Made by a program: the position numbers and the translations under genes | Source of the DNA: Escherichia coli | GTDB taxonomy: Bacteria > Pseudomonadota > Gammaproteobacteria > Enterobacterales > Enterobacteriaceae | Direction: 5' to 3' (one strand) | Assembly (NCBI RefSeq): GCF_024223415.1 | Contig: NZ_CP100500.1 | Length of the DNA: 64,000 nt | The notes under the pieces: model-generated | What the model saw: only the letters and a program-made list of their open reading frames with translations | Database searches by the model: none | What the model was told of the DNA's origin: nothing | Part shown: positions 3,235 to 52,582 of the stretch, one piece after another | Numbering within the stretch: position 1 is the first letter of the stretch | Layout: every line of letters starts with the position of its first letter

Positions 3235-3696
3235 ATGCAGTTCACTTTTAATGAAGGCCACATTCAACTGCCGTCTCAATGGCAGGATCAGTCAATGCAG
3301 GTCCTGGTGTCCACAGATAACAGTGGCATCAACCTGGTCATTACCCGCGAAGCCGTTCCACAGGGAACCCTGACACCAGAGCTGTACCAGGAAACGCTGG
3401 CGCTGTACCAGGGCAAACTTGATGGGTACACCGCACATGCCTGCCGGGAAATCACTCTGGCAGAGGCCCCGGCCTGGCTGCTGGATTATTCCTGGAACGG
3501 TCCGGAAGATGAAGGGAATCAGGGGCGGATTAGCCAGATAGCCGTATTCCAGCGGCGTGGAGATACGCTGCTGACCTTCACTTTCAGCACCTCCTTATCC
3601 CTGAAGAACAGTCAAAAGACGATGCTGCTGGAGGTGATAAAGAGCTTCACCCCGTTGCCACCGGAGAATGATATCCAAAAGGACCAGCCGCGCTGA
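3235..3696 (+). CDS. DUF1795/Eag-family effector chaperone (EagR-like)
   Basis: 153 aa; N-terminal FNEG...LPSQWQDQS signature typical of Eag chaperones; sits between vgrG and a prePAAR Rhs effector. Confidence 0.65.
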   Translation: MQFTFNEGHIQLPSQWQDQSMQVLVSTDNSGINLVITREAVPQGTLTPELYQETLALYQGKLDGYTAHACREITLAEAPAWLLDYSWNGPEDEGNQGRISQIAVFQRRGDTLLTFTFSTSLSLKNSQKTMLLEVIKSFTPLPPENDIQKDQPR

Positions 3697-23577: not shown

Positions 23578-23824
23578 GCCACTCGATATCTGGTGCTACG
23601 GAAGTGTCCACACGGTTTAGCAGCACCCGATACTTTTTTCAGGCTTCCAGCAACGATCTTTCTTCCTCCGTTGCGATTTCCAGATCTACAGCATCCTGCA
23701 GTGGCGCAATATACTCACTGAATTCCTGGATGTAGAACTGTGTGGTGACGGTCTTCCAGCCATTCGGCTCCTGCTGTATTGAAGCATACCAGGCTATTTC
23801 AATATCGCTATGCTGCGGCAGCAT
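23578..23824 (-). pseudogene. tail fibre assembly gene remnant (tfaX-like)
   Basis: 61-aa ORF 23639..23824; 23578-23720 is a ~143-bp near-duplicate of the 3' part of tfa (24628-24769) with a 1-nt indel creating a stop. Confidence 0.7.
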
Positions 23825-23880
23825 TTAACCCCTTGTAATTCATTGCCATAATTGATTTAATTCACAAATAAAACTATAAC

Positions 23881-24549
23881 ATGGTGAAATTAATGAAAAA
23901 AAACACAGATGATGGGGCTAAAATTTACACACCACTTACCCTAAAGCTTTATGACTGGTGGGTTTTGGGAGTATCAAATCGGCTTGCATGGGGATCTCCT
24001 ACAAAGGAACACCTTCTTCCACACTTTCTGGAACATTTAGGTAACAACCATCTGGATATTGGTGTTGGAACTGGGTTTTACCTTACTCACGTACCTGAGA
24101 GTAGTCTGATATCTTTAATGGATTTGAACGAAGCTAGCCTGAACGCGGCATCTACAAGGGCTGGGGAATCAAAAATTAAACATAAAATTAACCATGATGT
24201 TTTTGAACCTTGTCCCGCGGCGTTACATGGTCAATTTGATTCCATTTCCATGTTTTACCTTCTTCACTGCCTGCCTGGAAATATATCTACAAAAAGCTGT
24301 GTAATACGCAATGCGGCGCAGGCCTTAACTGACGATGGAACTCTATACGGAGCCACAATTCTTGGCGATGGAGTTGTGCACAATAGCTTCGGTCAAAAAC
24401 TGATGCGCATTTACAATCAGAAAGGCATCTTTTCAAACACAAAAGATTCCGAAGAAGGCTTAACACATATACTCTCAGAGCATTTCGAGAATGTTAAAAC
24501 CAAGGTTCAAGGTACTGTAGTAATGTTTTCCGCTTCAGGGAAAAAATAG
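23881..24549 (+). CDS. SAM-dependent methyltransferase (YbcY-like)
   Basis: 222 aa; motif I DIGVGTGFY; K-12 DLP12 has ybcY at the equivalent position. Confidence 0.7.
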   Translation: MVKLMKKNTDDGAKIYTPLTLKLYDWWVLGVSNRLAWGSPTKEHLLPHFLEHLGNNHLDIGVGTGFYLTHVPESSLISLMDLNEASLNAASTRAGESKIKHKINHDVFEPCPAALHGQFDSISMFYLLHCLPGNISTKSCVIRNAAQALTDDGTLYGATILGDGVVHNSFGQKLMRIYNQKGIFSNTKDSEEGLTHILSEHFENVKTKVQGTVVMFSASGKK

Positions 24550-24603
24550 CATCCAACCGCAGCACGTTCTTGCTTAAGACGTGCTGCGGCATAATCCCAA
24601 TGA

Positions 24604-25188
24604 TTACTCCCTGACAGGGTTCGTAGGCCACTCAATATCAGGTGCAGTTGATGTATCAACACGGTTCAGCAACACCCGATACTTTTTCCAGGCTTCCAGC
24701 AATGAGGTTTCTTCCTCCGTTGCGATTTCCAGATCTACAGCATCCTGAAGTGGCGCAATATGCTCACTGGCTACCTGCATCAGGCTGTTTTTTGTTTCTT
24801 CCGCCTCCCGGATCCGGAACAGTTTTTCTGCTTCTGCATCTTTCACCCAGGCTGTGCCGTTCCACTTCTGAAACTCCCCTTCCGGCGATAACCAGGTAAC
24901 ATTTTCCGGTAACGGACCGAGTTCAGAAATAAATAACTCGTCCCCTGACGCTACGTCATAAACCGTTTTACCCCGATGGTCTTCAACGAGATGCCACGAT
25001 GCCTCATCACTGTTGAAAACAGCCACAAAGCCAGCAGGAATATCTGGTGGTGCAATATCGGTACTGTTTGCTGGCAGACCTGTATGAGGCGGAATATATG
25101 CGTCACCTTCACCAATAAATTTATTAGTTCCGGCCAGCAGATTATAAATTTTTATGGTCCGTGCTTGTTCACTCATTCTGAATGCCAT
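24604..25188 (-). CDS. tail fibre assembly protein (Tfa)
   Basis: 194 aa; immediately downstream of side tail fibre gene; conserved Tfa C-terminus ([16 protein letters not shown]). Confidence 0.85.
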
Positions 25189-44501: not shown

Positions 44502-46594
44502 CCTCCGGAAGTCAGCCAGGGGTTAACATCGTCAGTTACTGTTTTCTTCCGTTTTTGTTTTTTAACAGGCGTGGATACCGGTTCCGGTGAGGATGACGGT
44601 TCGGTACTGTCCTGGACACACTCCAGCCAGGTTTCCCGGCTCGCCCACTCCGGTGCATCCGGCCAGCGGATCTTTTCGTATCCATGCAGAATGACCAGAG
44701 CCTCGGCATACACCATCAGGTCAAAAGCTTCGTTGGCACCGCGACCCGGCTTACTCCATTTCCCGTCACTGCTCCGCTCTTCATACGTCAGTTCGTCGTA
44801 AAACCAGCTCCCCAGCCAGTCAGGGAAATGCACATAGCCGGGACCTGGCGAGTCACGCCATAACGCGTTATTCACCCGGTCTTTCAGTGCATCCGTCTGA
44901 AGAAGCCAGAGCGGCACATCACCTGCGGCCTGCGCCCGTCGGCCCGTTCGTCCGGTGTTATCAGGGAATGTACGGGTGATCAGTTTTGCGCGCCGGATGC
45001 TGTCGCCCTTAAACAGGTAAATACGTTTACCAAGGCCATCACGACGGCAACGACGCCAGAATTTATAGGCATTATCAGTGACCCCGTCTTCACCGCCGGA
45101 GTCCACCGCCATTGCCATCAGTCGCATTTGTTGAGAAGGATCGGAGGCCAGCGGCCAGCTTTTATGAAAAACATCCGTCAGCAGGACATCCCAGTCTTCC
45201 GGATAGCTGGCCGGATCAATTCGCTGGCTCTCCCCGTCGCTGTCACCGCGCAATGACTGCGTGATGTTGTAACGATCAATAATCCAGCGTTCGCCACGGC
45301 TGCCATAGCCCGTTACCTGAACCACAAAACGGCGATGACGTCCCGCCTGCACATCCACTGTCGCCACAAGGAAATTAACGCCATCCGGCACACTGCGGGA
45401 AGGAACTGGCTCTGCCCGCTGCTCAAGCAGTTCACTTTTTCGTTGCTCCATGCTGGCGCGGGGAAGATAAGGTAATCCCCAGTCGGTATTGATAACCGTC
45501 TTGAGTGTTTCTTCACTTCCGGTTGTCTCGTATTCCTGTTCTGCAGTAAGCAGTTTGTAAACGAGTTGCGAGAGTGTCTGGTAAGCAGCTGCCGGACCCT
45601 CCATCCAGAATGACGCAATACGTGAGCGTCGGGGATCACCATAACGACTGCCATCCGCATTGATGGATTCACCATCCCGCAACCAGACCCCACGTCCGTT
45701 CAGCTCACGTTTGTGTTCAGGCATAATCCGTCCTGAACAGGAAGGACACTGAATATAAGCCGCCTCACTTGCCAGCACGGGATCGGCAATATCACGGAAA
45801 CCAGCAACCACATCGCCGCAGGGCTGAAAATACTCACCACAGTGTGGACAGGGCCAGTACCAGCGACGGCGATCACCACGGTTATAGAGCGACAGGATCC
45901 CCGTGGTTGGTGGAGCCTCATGCGGTGAAGTCCGTCGCCATTTCACATCCTTCACATCCCTGCCGGGGGAACTCTCCACCAACGTCATACCGCTGGACAT
46001 AAATGTGGTGGTACGTTTTGAGGCAAGAGAGAAGGCATCCCCCTCGCCATCAATATCTTCCGGAAAACGGTCATAATCCGTCAGCGCGACGCATTTATAA
46101 TCTGATGAGGACATGATATTGACTGACGGCCAGCCGATTTTCAGGTAGTTGCCAGCAAGGAATGTTCTGTCATAAACGTTGTTGTCATTTTTGTTCGGAC
46201 TCAGGCGACTGACCACTTCCGGGCTGACGCGAAACGTTCTGGCGAGTCGTTTTTTGGAGTGTTCGCGGGCTTTTTCCTCCGTCATCTGAATGATCAGCAT
46301 ATCAGCAGGATCGCAAATCACGTTGTAAATCACCCAGCCGTCAATCAGGCCGATAGTCTTGCCGGTTCGTGCCGGGCCAACAAATATCACTGCGTCGTAT
46401 TCACGCGAGGCCAGGCAGTTCATCGGCTCAATAACATACGGTGCCACCAGCGGATCCCACGGGACTGAGTTCCCGGCCCCCATGGGCACCCGCATATACT
46501 GAGCAACGGCATCAGCAACCCGCATTCGTCTCGGTGCGCGAAGGATATAACCTGAATCGGTTCGTGCTGCCTTTGCGGTTTCCTGATTCAGCAT
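44492..46594 (-). CDS. terminase large subunit
   Basis: 700 aa; Walker A-like VIFVGPARTGKT; lambda A-like. Confidence 0.9.
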   Translation of the reverse strand: MLNQETAKAARTDSGYILRAPRRMRVADAVAQYMRVPMGAGNSVPWDPLVAPYVIEPMNCLASREYDAVIFVGPARTGKTIGLIDGWVIYNVICDPADMLIIQMTEEKAREHSKKRLARTFRVSPEVVSRLSPNKNDNNVYDRTFLAGNYLKIGWPSVNIMSSSDYKCVALTDYDRFPEDIDGEGDAFSLASKRTTTFMSSGMTLVESSPGRDVKDVKWRRTSPHEAPPTTGILSLYNRGDRRRWYWPCPHCGEYFQPCGDVVAGFRDIADPVLASEAAYIQCPSCSGRIMPEHKRELNGRGVWLRDGESINADGSRYGDPRRSRIASFWMEGPAAAYQTLSQLVYKLLTAEQEYETTGSEETLKTVINTDWGLPYLPRASMEQRKSELLEQRAEPVPSRSVPDGVNFLVATVDVQAGRHRRFVVQVTGYGSRGERWIIDRYNITQSLRGDSDGESQRIDPASYPEDWDVLLTDVFHKSWPLASDPSQQMRLMAMAVDSGGEDGVTDNAYKFWRRCRRDGLGKRIYLFKGDSIRRAKLITRTFPDNTGRTGRRAQAAGDVPLWLLQTDALKDRVNNALWRDSPGPGYVHFPDWLGSWFYDELTYEERSSDGKWSKPGRGANEAFDLMVYAEALVILHGYEKIRWPDAPEWASRETWLECVQDSTEPSSSPEPVSTPVKKQKRKKTVTDDVNPWLTSGGWL

Positions 46595-47088
46595 TACTCC
46601 TCCTGCTGTAATTCCTCCTCATCATCCGCACCTGCTTCAGTCACCCGCAGGGCTATCTGATCGCGCAGATCATCAATAATGGACTGAACACGGCTCACAG
46701 CGGCAGGCTGCAGACCGCAGTCACGTTCAAGAATATCCGGTAATGTCTCCAGCACCTGCACGACCGCTTTTGCCCAGATGGCAAACTCCCGTCTGACATC
46801 ACTGGCCGGAATGAGTTGTGCCGTTTCCTGTTCGAACTTAAGACGCTCACGTTCAGACTGATACCAGGCTTTGCGCTCATGCGCGTCCATTTCGCCTTCT
46901 GCAACCGGCGGTGGTAATGCCAGAAATGCCGACACAATATCAACCACCCGATAAAGCTTGAGGTTGCTTTCATGCCCCCCTGCAACGGGTAGATTTTGCA
47001 GCCTTGCCGCAGCAGTCTGGCGATGTACACCTGACAGTGCCGCCAGTTGACTGATATTAAGCGTCAGATTTTTTAACTCTCGATCCAT
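46594..47088 (-). CDS. terminase small subunit (Nu1-like)
   Basis: 164 aa; N-terminal HTH (LNISQLAALSGVHRQTAAARL); stop overlaps terminase large start. Confidence 0.85.
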   Translation of the reverse strand: MDRELKNLTLNISQLAALSGVHRQTAAARLQNLPVAGGHESNLKLYRVVDIVSAFLALPPPVAEGEMDAHERKAWYQSERERLKFEQETAQLIPASDVRREFAIWAKAVVQVLETLPDILERDCGLQPAAVSRVQSIIDDLRDQIALRVTEAGADDEEELQQEE

Positions 47089-47409
47089 ACCCGCTCCAGA
47101 ATGTTTTAAACATGCATCTTGCGAACAACTTTAGGCAAACGGTGTTAGTGATGAACAAAAAACAATCAAAATCGACACTACAAAAATAAAACCACTGTAA
47201 TATCAATCTATTACAGTAGTGGTGATGACGAATGAAATTTCAAAAACTAGCCTTTTTCCGCGATGCTCCCGCCCCGTGCCAGCCTCCCCCATTAGGAGGA
47301 CCCACATTTCTTATCAGGTATTCAAAACGCCCACCTCAATGAGGTCGGATCAGATTGATGTGAGAGAACAAATCATGCAAACTATCTAAGCTCATGGTAA
47401 GAAGTAGCA

Positions 47410-47835
47410 GTGACAAGAGGATATTTCCTGATGGAGCAGGCAAATATTTTTCAAGAGATATTCGAACACGTTAGAAGTAATTTATACTTCCCATGGTTTT
47501 ACTCCGAATTAAAACGCCATAATATTGCGCATTATATTTATTATCTGGCTACTGATAATATAAGACTAATTACTCATGATGATAATGTTTTATTAGTTCG
47601 AGGCAGTAGAGGACTTGTGAAAGTTAGCACATCAAAAAAACCAGAGTTAATTAAAGAAGCAGCCAGGAATCTTATATCAGGTAAATCTACATTTCACCAA
47701 TATCGTCTCACTTTAGCAAAAGCAGGTGTTTATCGCTGGATTACAGATATAGATAAAAACATACGGTTTTACTATTCGTTTGATCACGATCTTTTGTACA
47801 TGGAAGATGTTGAAAATAACAGACCATTAATATAG
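47410..47835 (+). CDS. hypothetical protein (moron; possibly YbcV/DUF1398-like, unverified)
   Basis: 141 aa on the strand opposite to late genes, in an AT-rich island between terminase and lysis genes. Confidence 0.5.
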   Translation: MTRGYFLMEQANIFQEIFEHVRSNLYFPWFYSELKRHNIAHYIYYLATDNIRLITHDDNVLLVRGSRGLVKVSTSKKPELIKEAARNLISGKSTFHQYRLTLAKAGVYRWITDIDKNIRFYYSFDHDLLYMEDVENNRPLI

Positions 47836-48152
47836 GAATTAATTAAATCAGCAGTCCGGTTTCATACACCTCTGTACCGGACTAGCTGCATGAAGAGCAA
47901 ACCCGCGAAGCATAAAAGCGGTAAACCCAGGTGTGTATCGTTTTTTATTATTCCCACACACTCGTGCTCCCCGTCGGACTACACTCATGGTTAACGAAGG
48001 AATACAGCGACGATACGGCGCACAGAAATAAATCAGGCATCTATTGACCTCATAAAAACGATGCATTGCCTTGCTATGAGTAATGGTGTCAATTAAAGCT
48101 TTGGCTCTCTCTAGCCCCGGCGAATCTTCAGCGGATTATCCTTGGCCGGTTT

Positions 48153-48617
48153 TTATCTGAGGCATTGCTCTCGAATGTATAGCTGTGCCCCTTCAAGTTG
48201 TTTTTGCATTATTATCAGTCGCTCTCTGAGGGTGAAATAATCCCGTTCAGCGGTGTCTGCCAGTCGGGGGGCGGCTGCATTACCCACGCCGGAGGCGGCG
48301 GTGGCTTCACGCACGGTCTGACAGACTGCTCTGATGCGCAACCGACGACGACCAGCGGCAATATCATCACGAAGAGCATCATTTTCAGCTTTCGCATCAG
48401 CTAATTCCTTCAGGTATTTTGCATCGAGTGCAGTAATATCACGCTGGCGCTGCTGCATGTCAGTAATGGCTGCATTCGCCTGGCTGAGTTTTGTCTTCGC
48501 ATCATCTCTCTGCTCTTTGTAGATGATGGCATTATCGCGGTAATGGGCTATTGCCAGCAACAGCGCACCACTGACCACCAGTAGAATAACAATCACCGCA
48601 TACAGAACCCGTTTCAT
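48153..48617 (-). CDS. i-spanin Rz
   Basis: Start at internal ATG (MKRVLYAVIVILLVV, N-terminal TM); coiled-coil periplasmic domain; track ORF to 48668. Confidence 0.85.
   Translation of the reverse strand: MKRVLYAVIVILLVVSGALLLAIAHYRDNAIIYKEQRDDAKTKLSQANAAITDMQQRQRDITALDAKYLKELADAKAENDALRDDIAAGRRRLRIRAVCQTVREATAASGVGNAAAPRLADTAERDYFTLRERLIIMQKQLEGAQLYIREQCLR
48215..48397 (-). CDS. o-spanin Rz1 (lipoprotein embedded in Rz, +1 frame)
   Basis: 60 aa; lipobox LVVVGC; proline-rich; wholly inside Rz. Confidence 0.85.
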   Translation of the reverse strand: MRKLKMMLFVMILPLVVVGCASEQSVRPCVKPPPPPAWVMQPPPDWQTPLNGIISPSESD

Positions 48618-48618
48618 T

Positions 48619-48837
48619 TCACCACCAGCGTATCTGAGCAATGAAATAACCGGAGGCCATAATCGCAAACACCAGCCAGAAAAGAATGAATTTCCAGGTG
48701 GATAATTTTTCAGCCATAGTTCGAATCTCCCGAATCAGTTTGCTAAAATCAAACACACTTTCTCCTTTGGCTTTTCCGGAGTCAGGAAACACAAAAAACC
48801 CGACTGTTCGCGCAATCGGGGGTCTGCTCTTATTCAC
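48619..48837 (-). CDS. small hypothetical membrane protein between endolysin and Rz
   Basis: ORF up to 72 aa, possibly 32 aa from internal Met; hydrophobic C-terminal helix; stop overlaps Rz start region. Confidence 0.3.
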   Translation of the reverse strand: MNKSRPPIARTVGFFVFPDSGKAKGESVFDFSKLIREIRTMAEKLSTWKFILFWLVFAIMASGYFIAQIRWW

Positions 48838-48914
48838 TACTTCAATTCATTTATGACTAATATCGTGTTATCCACCCGCGTTGGCCAACGTCATTTTTCA
48901 GAGAAATATTCTGC

Positions 48915-49553: not shown

Positions 49554-49826
49554 ATGGACAATAACACCATTTCTCTTCAGGAGTTGCTCGACTGCATTTC
49601 CAGGCTTCGGGATGATGTTAATGCCCTTACTGTCGCATTTTCATATCTGGCATTGTCAATTCCCAGGGAACAAATGCAACCAACACTGGCATCGCTCCAG
49701 CTTGAATCACACAGCCCAAAATGGTCCCAGGAACAACAAAATTCCTTCAAGTGGCTGGTGGCATTACTGGAAGATAAATATGCTGTTAAAATTAAAATTC
49801 CGGCGGAGTCTTCAGAGAACCAGTAA
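49554..49826 (+). CDS. hypothetical protein, opposite strand within lysis cassette
   Basis: 90 aa; RBS aagagga upstream; protein-like composition while the antisense frame is low-complexity. Confidence 0.45.
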   Translation: MDNNTISLQELLDCISRLRDDVNALTVAFSYLALSIPREQMQPTLASLQLESHSPKWSQEQQNSFKWLVALLEDKYAVKIKIPAESSENQ

Positions 49827-50539: not shown

Positions 50540-51280
50540 TTACATCATGTCTTTTTCTAAAAAAAATCTTGATGAATATTGATGGGGAGGAACACCAAAA
50601 TATCTTCTGAAAACACTTACAAAATATGACGTGTTTTCATAACCGCATATCTCAGCAACTTTTCCAACAGAATATAAATTGTAGCTTAATAACCTTTCCG
50701 CCATCACCATTCGCTCTTCAAGAATTAACTTACTAAATGATAAGCCTTCGTGCTTTAATTTTCTTTTTAACAGGCTTTCACTCAGATACAGTCTTGAAGA
50801 TATATCACAAAGTCTCCATGCTGCAGATATATCCGTGTGAATAATAGCCTTAACTTTACTTCCTAAACTATTAAGACATCCAAATAAAAAACTTTGCACT
50901 GTTTTCTCTGAAGATAAGATAGCAAGACATGCAAGTGATATTTGATTTCTAACAAAATCCACAGTTCTGCCATCAAAATTCAAGCATGCAATCAAATTCT
51001 TTAACAATGAAAAATCTTCACATTCCACCATCAAGTATGCCGGATAAAACCTTCTTACAGAAAAAGGTGAGAGTGTGTTGTTTTTAAAGAAATCATTAAC
51101 TGTTTTCTCTTCAACATCTACGATCATTACATGATCTATATTTGATGAAAAAAAATCTTTTAAATTGTAATCAATGAGAACAGCACTTCCTTTTTTAAAC
51201 AAAATATCTTCTTTACCAATTCGGACATCAAACGAGTTCAACACCAAAATGATAGAACATATGTATGGCATATTATCCAC
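50540..51280 (-). CDS. AraC-family transcriptional regulator (prophage cargo)
   Basis: 246 aa; AT-rich; C-terminal AraC HTH (GYENTSYFVSVFRRYFGVPPHQY). Confidence 0.8.
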   Translation of the reverse strand: MDNMPYICSIILVLNSFDVRIGKEDILFKKGSAVLIDYNLKDFFSSNIDHVMIVDVEEKTVNDFFKNNTLSPFSVRRFYPAYLMVECEDFSLLKNLIACLNFDGRTVDFVRNQISLACLAILSSEKTVQSFLFGCLNSLGSKVKAIIHTDISAAWRLCDISSRLYLSESLLKRKLKHEGLSFSKLILEERMVMAERLLSYNLYSVGKVAEICGYENTSYFVSVFRRYFGVPPHQYSSRFFLEKDMM

Positions 51281-51622
51281 CTGATATCATTGGGGTTACA
51301 CCAGGTAAGTATAGGTGGAAAATCAATATTCGCCAGTTCAACAATAAGGAAAATCTCATTGCATCACAAGTATAAAATTATGTATTTAACTCACAAAGAC
51401 AAATTATTAAACCAATCTGTTATATTATATATAGCTGCGTGGAATCATAATATTATATATTTTGACTGGCATGTTTACCAACTTTAAGTTGCATCTCAAT
51501 GGTTTCTTCAGCGTAAACAGAGTTTTTATACAAACTGACACTCTGGGTATCATAGTGTAGTTTTTACGATTGTAAATATCCTGCATGCAGGAACTCATCC
51601 TTTTGGATGATATCGCATACAA

Positions 51623-52582
51623 TTAATTTACCATCAGTCTTAGAGCCAGTTCGTCCGGATAGGGATCGAAGTAATTCTGTGTAAGCAAGTAGTCATTAGG
51701 ATACTCACCCAGATAATGCTTCAGCAGAGTCAACGGCGCAAGAAGAGGTAATGTGCCAGAACGATAGTTAAGTATAACCTCGCTCAACTCTTTACGCTGG
51801 CGTGTACTTAAGTAGTTACTAAAATACCCCTGTATATGCATCAGCACATTCGTGTGATTTTTACGTGATGCAGGTTTTCTGAGAATCGCCATCAGCTTAT
51901 CACGATACACCTCAAAGTATGATTCAAGGTCCGCCCACTCGTGTATTGCAGCCACAAATGGTCCCATATCTTTATAGCCTGCCTGACTATGCGCCAACAA
52001 CTGAAGCTTATAACGACTATGAAAAGCTAATAACTCTCTTCTTGATAATTTCTCCTTGTAAAGGTGATTGAGCTCATGCAAAGCAAAAACTCTTTCAACA
52101 AAATTCTCACGAAGCACTGGATCATGTAATCGCCCATCCTCTTCAACCGGTAGCCAGGAAAACTTTTCCATCAAAGTGCTCGTAAATAGTCCCACTCCAT
52201 CTTTACGACCTCGATTACCATTTTCATCATAGACACGCACGCGCTCCATGCCACAGCTGGGAGATTTAGCACAAACCACAAACCCCGATACATCCTTTAA
52301 TTTGTCCATATAAGAACGACTAAACTCTGTCATTCTCTCTGTCACATCCTCATTCTGGTCGTGGCTGAAACACATCCGTATATTTCCTTGCGTCGAGCGC
52401 ACAAGACGTAGAGCAGGACGCGGAACTGGCAGCCCTATAGCCATTTCCGGACATACTGGTCTGAATGTTACCCATTCCACTAATTTGTCCATTAAAAAGT
52501 CAGCTCTTTTGTGACCACCATCAAAACGAACAGCAGAACCGGCCAAACAACCGCTGATTCCAATCACAGGTTTTTTTATCAT
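51623..52582 (-). CDS. DUF523 (TudS-like) / DUF1722 fusion protein
   Basis: 319 aa; N-terminal Cys-containing DUF523-like region (GISGCLAG...CPEM...SPSCG), C-terminal YbgA-like region. Confidence 0.6.
   Translation of the reverse strand: MIKKPVIGISGCLAGSAVRFDGGHKRADFLMDKLVEWVTFRPVCPEMAIGLPVPRPALRLVRSTQGNIRMCFSHDQNEDVTERMTEFSRSYMDKLKDVSGFVVCAKSPSCGMERVRVYDENGNRGRKDGVGLFTSTLMEKFSWLPVEEDGRLHDPVLRENFVERVFALHELNHLYKEKLSRRELLAFHSRYKLQLLAHSQAGYKDMGPFVAAIHEWADLESYFEVYRDKLMAILRKPASRKNHTNVLMHIQGYFSNYLSTRQRKELSEVILNYRSGTLPLLAPLTLLKHYLGEYPNDYLLTQNYFDPYPDELALRLMVN

Follow-up and report, generated by a model that had tools for sequence, protein, structure and literature searches.

The lysis-to-packaging junction of a lambdoid Escherichia coli prophage and its probable DUF1398 accessory cassette

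Layout of the junction

The 1,064-bp gap described here (positions 47089-48152) lies between the gene for the small terminase subunit and Rz in a stretch of 64,000 nucleotides of Escherichia coli DNA, which we call the window. The small terminase gene belongs to the DUF1441 type (Pfam PF07278, E = 2.7e-41; phrog_141 'terminase small subunit', E = 7e-74) and is followed by genes for a gpA-like large terminase, a W-like protein and the portal. On the other side, Rz is recognized by Pfam Phage_lysis (PF03245, E = 2.6e-48), PGAP labels the product of an identical sequence as 'lysis protein', and the Rz1 ORF embedded in it bears a lipobox-like MRKLKMMLFVMILPLVVVGC. The gap joins the lysis and packaging genes of a lambdoid E. 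coli prophage that is apparently complete. The late (minus) strand would run from Rz/Rz1 through a short spacer, a conserved 176-nt element, cosQ, cosN and a cosB-like region into the DUF1441-type terS gene, with one gene on the plus strand facing it (Table 1).

An earlier note, made from the sequence alone, had described an AT-rich gap of about 1 kb between terminase and Rz. Indeed, the gap has a GC content of 39.4%, whereas the terminase genes reach 53-55% and Rz 51%. Only positions 47304-47849 are low in GC (33.7%), and the element that adjoins them has 50.6%. Within this interval the coding sequence of the DUF1398 gene has 32.3% GC, a value equally low in only 3.3% of 405-nt segments across the 64 kb. 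With 69% identity, the spacer next to Rz matches the Rz-proximal spacer of PhiR5_1, a phage likewise devoid of bor. Its plus strand could form a weak hairpin of the terminator type (48117-48149, then TTTTTAT), which folds no better than shuffled sequences. A 56-aa ORF at 47219..47389 was rejected as a gene, as it covers the cosN and cosQ sequences and matches no family.

Table 1. Features of the junction and its flanking genes (window coordinates)
Feature	Position	Strand	Basis or remark
Small terminase subunit gene, DUF1441 type	46594..47088	-	Left boundary of the gap
cosB-equivalent region, cosN to terS start codon	47089..47262	-	Position and length as lambda cosB
cosN-like 12-mer	47263..47274	-	Alignment with lambda
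cosQ-like heptamer GGGTCCT	47297..47303	-	Identical to the lambda heptamer
AT-rich moron cassette, 546 bp	47304..47849	+	Between cosQ and the conserved element
Conserved promoter-like block	47339..47383	+	Alignment of window, K-12 ybcV and lambda lambdap78
DUF1398/YbcV-family gene, 134 aa	47431..47835	+	Pfam DUF1398
Conserved 176-nt element of lambdoid phages	47850..48025	-	Backbone composition
Spacer, element to Rz stop codon	48026..48152		Matches PhiR5_1 spacer
Rz (i-spanin) with embedded Rz1 (48215..48397)	48153..48668	-	Right boundary of the gap

A predicted lambda-type cos site beside the terminase gene

The cos site had been expected in this gap, and we located lambda-type cosQ, cosN-like and cosB-like parts there. 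On the late strand, positions 47263-47274 with their flanks read ACG-GGGCGGGAGCAT-CGCGG and align with ACG-GGGCGGCGACCT-CGCGG of lambda, such that the flanks and the first six bases of the 12-mer are the same whereas 5 of the 12 bases differ. The cosQ heptamer matches that of lambda at every position and, in the late-strand direction, precedes cosN by 22 nt (23 nt in lambda), and the distance from cosN to the ATG of terS is about 175 bp, compared to 190 bp in lambda. A possible further resemblance is an IHF consensus between repeat arms at the position of cosB. In the prophage this is a 12-bp inverted repeat, ACCACTGTAATA/TATTACAGTAGT, at 47191..47220 that flanks an IHF core consensus (47201-47213) and is followed by a T-run on the late strand; the hairpin has an energy of -14.4 kcal/mol (z = -3.2), and the IHF consensus WATCAANNNNTTR has just two matches in the 64 kb, one of them inside this repeat. 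We propose the repeat as a candidate binding module for TerS and IHF.

The resemblance to lambda does not extend to the rest of the cosB-like sequence, which is unrelated to the lambda R sites, or to the small terminase itself, which is of the DUF1441 type here and of the Nu1 type in lambda. In E. coli 2D (L139), homology to the window ends near position 47234 and a different DUF1441 terS allele is present, with cosN and cosQ unchanged. A change of terS allele goes with a change of the cosB part, much as between lambda and phage 21. Judged by its similarity to lambda, the gap would contain a cleavable lambda-type cohesive-end site at which, after induction, terminase would bind cosB, nick cosN and end packaging via cosQ. 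The starts of the mEp460 and Ayreon records were considered as physical cos ends and discarded, as both begin at the annotated terS ATG, and a literature search on this cosN variant returned nothing relevant. The comparison with lambda maps the putative cos site of a lambdoid prophage with a DUF1441-type terminase.

A DUF1398 gene inserted between cosQ and the conserved element

The single 141-aa ORF that the earlier note placed opposite to the late genes is present on the plus strand at 47410..47835, where its mechanical start is a GTG at 47410. The true start is likely the ATG that yields 134 aa: it is preceded by AAGAGGA, it aligns with the start of YbcV, and NCBI annotates an identical sequence in this way (WP_024223431.1). 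The profile search suggested in that note, with DUF1398/YbcV as the candidate family, matched Pfam DUF1398 (PF07166) with E = 5.8e-41 and 139.7 bits, against a gathering cut-off of 22, over the full profile (positions 1-119 of 119). Known relatives are lambdap78 of lambda and YbcV of the K-12 prophage DLP12 (PF07166), with YdfO of prophage Qin (PDB 2HH8) as a paralogue. The 16-kDa protein is 51% identical to both YbcV and lambdap78, and the nearest other cluster of DUF1398 proteins is only 66% identical, indicating a divergent and rarer allele. Its high-confidence, YdfO-like fold contains an internally duplicated helix-helix-strand-strand-strand unit. The protein is soluble, with no transmembrane segment or signal peptide and no enzymatic or sensor domain found. 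Three genomes share the identical, intact ORF; an allele with 98.6% identity differs by five synonymous and two non-synonymous substitutions. For this uncharacterised family, published work is confined to phenotypes of overexpression or expression, described for YdfO and YbcV. Distant homologues occur as stand-alone chromosomal genes, also outside prophages, with no conserved neighbour or partner, and a biochemical mechanism can therefore not be derived from genomic context.

A moron, as defined by Juhala et al. (2000), is an extra gene with its own signals that is inserted between genes adjacent in related phages. The AT-rich moron region of the earlier note, with its ORF encoded opposite to the late genes, corresponds to the plus-strand cassette between cosQ and the conserved element. 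Homology with mEp460, phi458, 569R4 and EJN001 stops exactly at 47303, the end of cosQ, and homology with cassette-less phages resumes at 47854. The cassette is absent from mEp460, 569R4, PhiR5_1 and EJN001, in which the flanking sequences are joined differently. The same 1.4 kb also occurs in an unrelated DLP12-type remnant, which shows that it has spread by recombination.

We examined how this slot is filled in 120 IMG/VR viral contigs with the same junction. The DUF1398 gene was present in 19 and missing in 101, and all 19 copies were opposite-strand genes placed between the element and cos. The lipoprotein gene bor likewise occurred in 19 of the 120, again always on the opposite strand, with its place between Rz and the element. 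DUF1398 alone was found in 16 contigs, bor alone in 16, both in 3 and neither in about 80. The two genes are independent morons, of which this prophage has only DUF1398, and the lack of bor at this junction is not unusual. They resemble each other in junction, opposite-strand orientation and variable presence, and differ in product and place: Bor/Iss, known from lambda, DLP12 and many E. coli prophages, is an exported serum-resistance lipoprotein encoded on the Rz side of the element, whereas the DUF1398 protein is soluble and encoded on its cos side.

The earlier note had seen no Bor-like lipoprotein here, in agreement with our tblastn searches of the whole 64-kb window with lambda Bor, K-12 BorD and Iss, which found no bor/iss homologue (best E = 0.1). 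It had also pointed out that lambda and DLP12 carry bor at the equivalent place. The junction is indeed the same, but the ORF is not a substitute for bor, because lambda and DLP12 carry lambdap78 or ybcV beside bor in the same orientation: the order is Rz, then bor and lambdap78 on the opposite strand, then cos in lambda, and rzpD, then borD and ybcV on the opposite strand in DLP12. In both, bor lies immediately downstream of the DUF1398 gene and ybcW/lambdap79 upstream, and both of these neighbours are missing from the window. The bor/iss cassette of lambda, DLP12, Perceval and EJN001 occupies the position of the 48026..48152 spacer. A bor remnant in 47836-48152 was considered and rejected, as this region gives no tblastn signal, its spacer matches that of the bor-less PhiR5_1, and the lambda/K-12 bor promoter region with its PhoP-box-like TGTTTAGGGTTTGTTTAA is absent.

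Upstream of the gene, a single block (Table 1) is conserved among the window gene, K-12 ybcV and lambda lambdap78. It comprises a homologue of the PdhR box (47339-47355) with a mismatch in one core arm, a -35 hexamer TTGATG (47355-47360), a 17-nt spacer and a -10 hexamer CAAACT (47378-47383). Both hexamers are weak and a consensus promoter scan did not call the block, so that its assignment as a promoter is inferred. In K-12, the counterpart of the block is a PdhR SELEX site and ybcV mRNA is 10-fold lower in a pdhR mutant (PMC7660256), and perturbation of H-NS by T4 MotB derepresses ybcV more than 1,000-fold (PMC7827196). Together, the conserved block and these K-12 data suggest that the gene may be expressed in the lysogen. 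As the only gene of the cassette it converges with the late operon and is preceded by the cassette's weak promoter-like block and a Shine-Dalgarno sequence; no candidate terminator behind it was convincing. Because it faces against the late operon and would have its own promoter, its transcription in the prophage should be independent of Q, and by analogy with the published behaviour of K-12 ybcV it is probably silenced by H-NS and dependent on an activator. As for function, one paper cites work in which overexpression of YdfO reportedly increases resistance to oxidative stress (PMC4077768).

We consider it likely, on balance, that the junction consists of a conserved backbone and one inserted accessory DUF1398 cassette, which most likely acts for the lysogen, in host physiology or in tolerance of stress, and not in the production of virions. 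An unlikely alternative is that the cassette is a silent hitch-hiker in a recombination-prone junction, held down by H-NS and functionless in this prophage. The cassette is very AT-rich, as H-NS targets typically are, strong derepression of K-12 ybcV is seen only upon H-NS perturbation, most related phages lack the cassette, and the same DNA turns up in the DLP12-type remnant. However, the intact ORF, with its full-length Pfam match and high-confidence fold, shows no decay, the upstream regulatory block is kept between alleles whose proteins are only 51% identical, and ybcV mRNA is measurable and regulated in wild-type K-12 (PMC7660256). The substitutions relative to the 98.6%-identical allele lean towards constraint, in numbers that are tiny.

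An accessory role could also take the form of superinfection exclusion or another defence that protects the lysogen from phages. Many prophage cargo genes of this kind have turned out to be defence genes, and such a role would fit a gene that is AT-rich, variably present and encoded on the opposite strand, that lies in a known moron hotspot beside cos and that is plausibly expressed independently of the late operon. We nevertheless regard it as improbable: there was no match among 5,027 PADLOC models, the product is a single small protein without an enzymatic or sensor domain, its distant homologues sit in ordinary chromosomal contexts, and no phenotype has been reported. Weak evidence against it also comes from a phage-resistant APEC mutant that had lost, rather than gained, ydfO (PMC8711792). 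A lytic-cycle role as a head or packaging component beside cos and terminase is very unlikely, as the one match to a structural or packaging family, of the kind that the earlier note had held would speak against an accessory gene, is phrog_413 ('head and packaging / head protein', E = 2.8e-47), whose label is the same as the RefSeq 'head protein' label of lambdap78 and probably derives from it, whereas that RefSeq label is noted as 'Predicted by GeneMark' and replaced 'putative envelope protein', lambdap78 is dispensable for plaque formation, scoring as non-essential in a CRISPRi screen of lambda (EOP 1.9/1.3; PMC10695390), and the gene, although it lies beside cos, is AT-rich, opposite to the late operon, absent from most contigs with the same junction and represented by stand-alone chromosomal homologues outside prophages.

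A conserved 176-nt element after the lysis cassette

The accessory DUF1398 cassette adjoins an element that we found in at least 154 deposited genomes of lambdoid phages and at least 120 IMG/VR contigs, always directly after the lysis cassette and usually unannotated. Lambda has it between bor and lambdap78, and copies also occur in DLP12, mEp460 and VT1-Sakai. The proposed structure consists of a long hairpin at the 5' end, a variable one in the middle and one at the 3' end of the form GUCCGGU-N15-ACCGGAC; its stems in lambda include GUAUCGU/ACGAUAC and GUCCGGU/ACCGGAC. In the alignment, 96.4% of cells pair in this structure, compared to 31-58% when the partners are slid, and seven pairs change on both sides. 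Folding of the single sequence gives no significant result for either strand (z = -0.2 and -1.2), and the support for the structure is comparative only. Stop codons are scattered through all frames of the element and codon periodicity is absent. In the late transcript the element probably forms a structured segment.

Coding readings of the element were examined and rejected. A 72-aa ORF at 47848..48066 matches phrog_6954 ('Rz-like spanin', E = 6e-12), but its frame is open in only 27 of 76 relatives, shows no codon periodicity and is interrupted by a stop in lambda and K-12. The annotation of 569R4 includes a small plus-strand ORF that crosses the element; frameshifts disrupt it in the window, in lambda and in others. 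The 'Rz-like spanin' and 'head protein' labels carried by junction sequences in PHROG and RefSeq appear to be annotation artefacts. Nor is the element the promoter of bor: bor-less phages have it too, and the bor promoter region is situated between it and bor.

The window copy gave no match at E <= 1 to the Rfam 15 covariance models. Among copies from five other phages, the sole overlapping match, at the mEp460 locus, was to ST7-OT4_3, a human lncRNA family (E = 0.38), and is spurious. No promoter of its own was evident for the element, and a literature search for transcripts between borD and ybcV returned nothing relevant. Like AgvB, AsxR, the Pas sRNAs, STnc100 and StxS, the element would be a conserved structured RNA in a moron-rich region of lambdoid prophages. 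Those sRNAs of lambdoid prophages lie downstream of pR'/Q and upstream of the lysis genes (PMC4104026; bioRxiv 10.64898/2026.05.13.724894) and are represented in Rfam, whereas the element lies after Rz, is longer, and has neither an Rfam match nor an evident promoter of its own. It is thus not one of the known sRNAs (AgvB, AsxR, Pas, STnc100), given its different locus and the lack of an Rfam match. We tentatively suggest that it may be a functional structured RNA of the late transcript, which might govern processing or stability of the lysis mRNA or serve as a regulatory RNA of the 3'-derived kind. On this proposal, bor and DUF1398 would be inserted to either side of it because it must stay intact.

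The DUF1398 gene itself, a divergent YbcV-family allele in a slot already filled in lambda and DLP12, changes little. The junction as a whole follows a fixed grammar of Rz, optional bor, the conserved element, optional DUF1398 and cosQ-cosN-cosB, which can be used for annotating prophages of E. coli. The element is a candidate for a cis-acting RNA that has gone unrecognised in a virus among the most thoroughly studied; if real, it is directly testable in lambda.

A DUF1398 gene between cos and a conserved segment

The gap between the DUF1441-type small terminase gene (terS) and Rz is AT-rich, as the earlier note had described, with 39.4% GC compared with 53–55% in the terminase genes. Low GC is limited to 47304–47849 (33.7%), and the adjoining conserved element has a phage-backbone-like 50.6%. 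The 141-aa ORF that the same note had placed on the opposite strand exists (47410..47835, plus), and its start is probably ATG 47431, giving 134 aa: AAGAGGA precedes this codon, which is also the start in the NCBI call on identical sequence (WP_024223431.1) and in YbcV. The proposed DUF1398/YbcV assignment held. The ORF matched DUF1398 in Pfam across the whole profile (E 5.8e-41) and the NMR structure of E. coli YdfO (2HH8, E 3e-40), and is 51% identical both to K-12 YbcV and to lambda lambdap78. Its 90% cluster has 49 members, with the next clusters 66% identical, and all close relatives are from Escherichia or Citrobacter. An exhaustive HMMER scan for the family returned no more than 112 representatives with E ≤ 1e-3; those distant full-length members that were examined stand alone in the chromosome, and no neighbouring gene is conserved. 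The window gene is a divergent new allele of a known type, a YbcV-type moron adjoining a lambda-type cos.

The low-GC cassette is bounded by cosQ (47303) on one side and the conserved element (47850) on the other; phages with both limits but without the cassette exist, and its composition is foreign. It is a moron. The lambda order is Rz, bor, lambdap78, lambdap79, cos, nu1, with bor and lambdap78 pointing against the other genes, and the DLP12 order is rzpD, borD, ybcV, ybcW and, further on, nohD, with borD and ybcV reversed. The DUF1398 gene of the window matches these in position and orientation, but ybcW and bor are missing. The absence of bor had been noted earlier, and tblastn found no Bor/BorD/Iss homologue in the whole 64 kb (best E 0.1). 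In its place, iss fills the slot in many E. coli prophages that share the terS–cos module.

Across 120 IMG/VR contigs, Rz lay upstream of the element on the same strand in 108. DUF1398 was present in 19, always on the opposite strand, on the cos side of the element and starting about 10 nt past it; bor was also present in 19, lying in every case between Rz and the element and again on the opposite strand. Both morons occurred together in 3 contigs, DUF1398 alone in 16 (as in the window), bor alone in 16 and neither in about 80, so a junction without bor is nothing unusual. Each moron has inserted independently, one on either side of an element that stays intact. In K-12 (locus L004, ~3420–3440) and lambda, a PhoP-box-like direct repeat, TGTTTAGGGTTTGTTTAA, lies between the element and the bor start codon, which places the bor promoter outside the element; this repeat is absent from the window.

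The cos site and exchange of the junction

A cos site had been expected in the gap, and candidate cosQ and cosN sequences lie there, aligned with those of lambda. On the late strand the region reads TGTGGGTCCTCCTAATGGGGGAGGCTGGCACG/GGGCGGGAGCAT/CGCGGAAAAAGG in the window and TTACGGGTCCTTTCCGGTGATCCGACAGGTTACG/GGGCGGCGACCT/CGCGGGTTTTCG in lambda. The cosQ sequence GGGTCCT is the same in both, 22 nt from cosN in the window and 23 nt in lambda; the cosN flanks and first six bases are also the same, and cosN is 175 bp from the terS ATG compared with 190 bp in lambda. In the loop of an inverted repeat at the cosB position is TATCAATCTATTA; the IHF core consensus is matched here and at just one other place in the window. 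Homology between the window and mEp460, phi458, 569R4 and EJN001 stops exactly at 47303, the last base of cosQ. The assembly LR595868.1 (mEp460_4F5) breaks 5–6 nt before cosN, with a junction that runs from GGGCGGGAG to CGCGG without three cosN bases; this break, possibly an assembler product at cohesive ends, gives weak and indirect support to the cos position. The start of the mEp460 record was considered as a physical end and rejected, as it is the terS ATG.

E. coli 2D shares the DUF1398 cassette, cosQ and cosN (GGGCGGGAGCGT, one base different) with the window, but next to them is another DUF1441 allele of terS. Its homology to the window is lost from ~47234 leftwards, between cosN and the inverted repeat, and cosB and terS therefore co-vary. 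In lambda and phage 21, cosB specificity moves together with the small subunit, a pattern that the swap between the window and E. coli 2D repeats.

The window is from E. coli, and the 16 kb around the gap shares 98.9% identity with strain GDSC2BY4G (NZ_CP136025), in which the annotation describes an apparently complete lambdoid prophage. Its order is integrase, LexA-like repressor (ymfK), Q antiterminator, cargo genes (lipocalin, YbgA-family, AraC-like regulator), holin, YdfR/DUF1327, lysozyme, Rz, the gap, DUF1441 small terminase, gpA-like large terminase, portal and, last, head and tail genes of lambda type. In the window the late genes all lie on the minus strand. Window 46900–48300 (1.4 kb) is 100% identical to NZ_OZ121069.1 3379543–3380943. 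That locus belongs to a DLP12-type remnant prophage in another E. coli, and the lysis genes rzpD/rrrD/essD and a truncated DUF1441 gene are next to it. The identity is evidence that the junction has been exchanged between unrelated prophages.

Some neighbouring features were also recorded. The cargo between the Q antiterminator and holin genes occupies 50540–52582 and reaches ~53800. A 90-aa ORF (49554–49826) matches phrog_2411, of unknown function (E 6e-53), and is annotated by PGAP in relatives as a hypothetical protein. NZ_CP136025.1, the closest complete genome, carries an IS2 between Rz and the lysozyme gene (23629–24857 of locus L138; window ~48670–48900) that the window lacks.

Features of the gap and its surroundings (window coordinates)
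Feature	Coordinates	Strand	Remarks
Gap, terS to Rz	47089–48152		1064 bp
Inverted repeat	47191–47220		12 bp; cosB position; hairpin z −3.2
Conserved element	47850–48025	minus	176 nt, non-coding; immediately follows the lysis cassette of lambdoid phages
90-aa ORF	49554–49826	plus	opposite to lysis genes; overlaps 3' end of DUF1327/YdfR gene
AraC/YdeO-like regulator gene	50540..51280	minus	31.6% GC; best NCBIfam YdeO, 127 bits, far under cut-off
YbgA-family gene	51623..52582	minus	cargo between Q and holin
Lipocalin gene			cargo between Q and holin; annotated in NZ_CP136025

Expression and role of the DUF1398 protein

Alignment upstream of the DUF1398 gene revealed a single block common to the window, K-12 and lambda. 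In K-12 it is AAGAGGTCAGACCAGAT-TGAAG-N17-CAAACT, of which the first part is a PdhR site from genomic SELEX; in the window it is ATGAGGTCGGATCAGAT, followed by TTGATG (47355–47360), a 17-nt spacer and CAAACT (47378–47383). Judged by its sequence, the window block may be a weak, activator-dependent sigma-70 promoter; a consensus promoter scan gave no call at it, and we found no convincing terminator 3' of the gene. Transcription of K-12 ybcV is regulated, its mRNA falling 10-fold in a pdhR mutant (PMC7660256). When T4 MotB perturbs H-NS, ybcV is among the genes derepressed >1000-fold (PMC7827196), which is compatible with an AT-rich H-NS target.

The protein (16 kDa, pI 8.8) contains no hydrophobic segment (maximum Kyte–Doolittle 19-residue mean 0.34) and is therefore soluble and cytoplasmic rather than an 'envelope' protein. 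Overexpression of YdfO is reported, in work cited in PMC4077768, to raise oxidative-stress resistance, and YbcV overexpression changed glycogen content in a screen (PMC2853380). In lambda, lambdap78 is dispensable for plaque formation, with an EOP of 1.9/1.3 and a non-essential score in a genome-wide CRISPRi screen (PMC10695390). PADLOC returned no match for the DUF1398 protein. Given this dispensability, the regulated ybcV transcription, the overexpression reports and the lack of a PADLOC match, we favour a putative lysogen-expressed accessory protein of host physiology, in support of the earlier interpretation. A role in defence, against which the PADLOC result counts, is less probable, as is the cassette being a silent hitch-hiker.

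A virion role is very improbable. The gene (47431–47835) matches phrog_413, labelled 'head protein', a label that probably derives from RefSeq lambdap78, which carries it with the note 'Predicted by GeneMark' and was earlier labelled 'putative envelope protein'. Because the label probably goes back to a GeneMark prediction and lambdap78 is non-essential, the gene does not count as matching any structural or packaging protein that has been characterised.

A putatively structured non-coding element after the lysis genes

The conserved element is 70–79% identical to segments in lambda (between bor and lambdap78, ~46.85–47.04 kb), DLP12, mEp460, VT1-Sakai and many Stx phages, and is also present at our homologous loci L002, L004–L008 and L011–L137. 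Copies were found in 154 deposited phage records and at least 120 IMG/VR contigs, mostly unannotated. It is non-coding: scattered stops break all frames, even the best one being open in just 27 of the 76 distinct copies, and variation by codon phase is 281/147/257. The phrog_6954 family ('Rz-like spanin') consists of chance ORFs crossing it (47848–48066), and this label, like that of phrog_413, appears to have been propagated without experimental basis.

RNAalifold gave −30.1 kcal/mol for the late strand compared with −16.6 for the other. The late-strand structure, derived from a 26-sequence MAFFT alignment, comprises a long hairpin (GUAUCGU...ACGAUAC, UAUUCCC...GGGAAUA), a middle hairpin, whose place some lineages fill with unrelated hairpins, and a 3' hairpin, GUCCGGU-N15-ACCGGAC. 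When tested on the same 26 sequences it came from, 96.4% of cells pair, compared with 31–58% with the partners slid, and seven pairs have changed on both sides, a count reached by none of 500 shuffles. Single-sequence folding energies were no better than those of shuffles. G·U cells outnumbered A·C cells by 106 to 16, but counted by position the figures were only 20 to 11 (p 0.15), so assignment to the late strand is favoured, short of proof. The window copy had no Rfam match at E ≤ 1; across the copies in five other phages the sole overlapping match, to the human lncRNA family ST7-OT4_3 (E 0.38, mEp460 locus), was spurious.

This RNA-like conserved element, absent from the earlier note, is the only item here that is potentially new. 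Possibly it serves the processing or stability of the lysis mRNA at its 3' end, or else it is a regulatory RNA derived from the late transcript.
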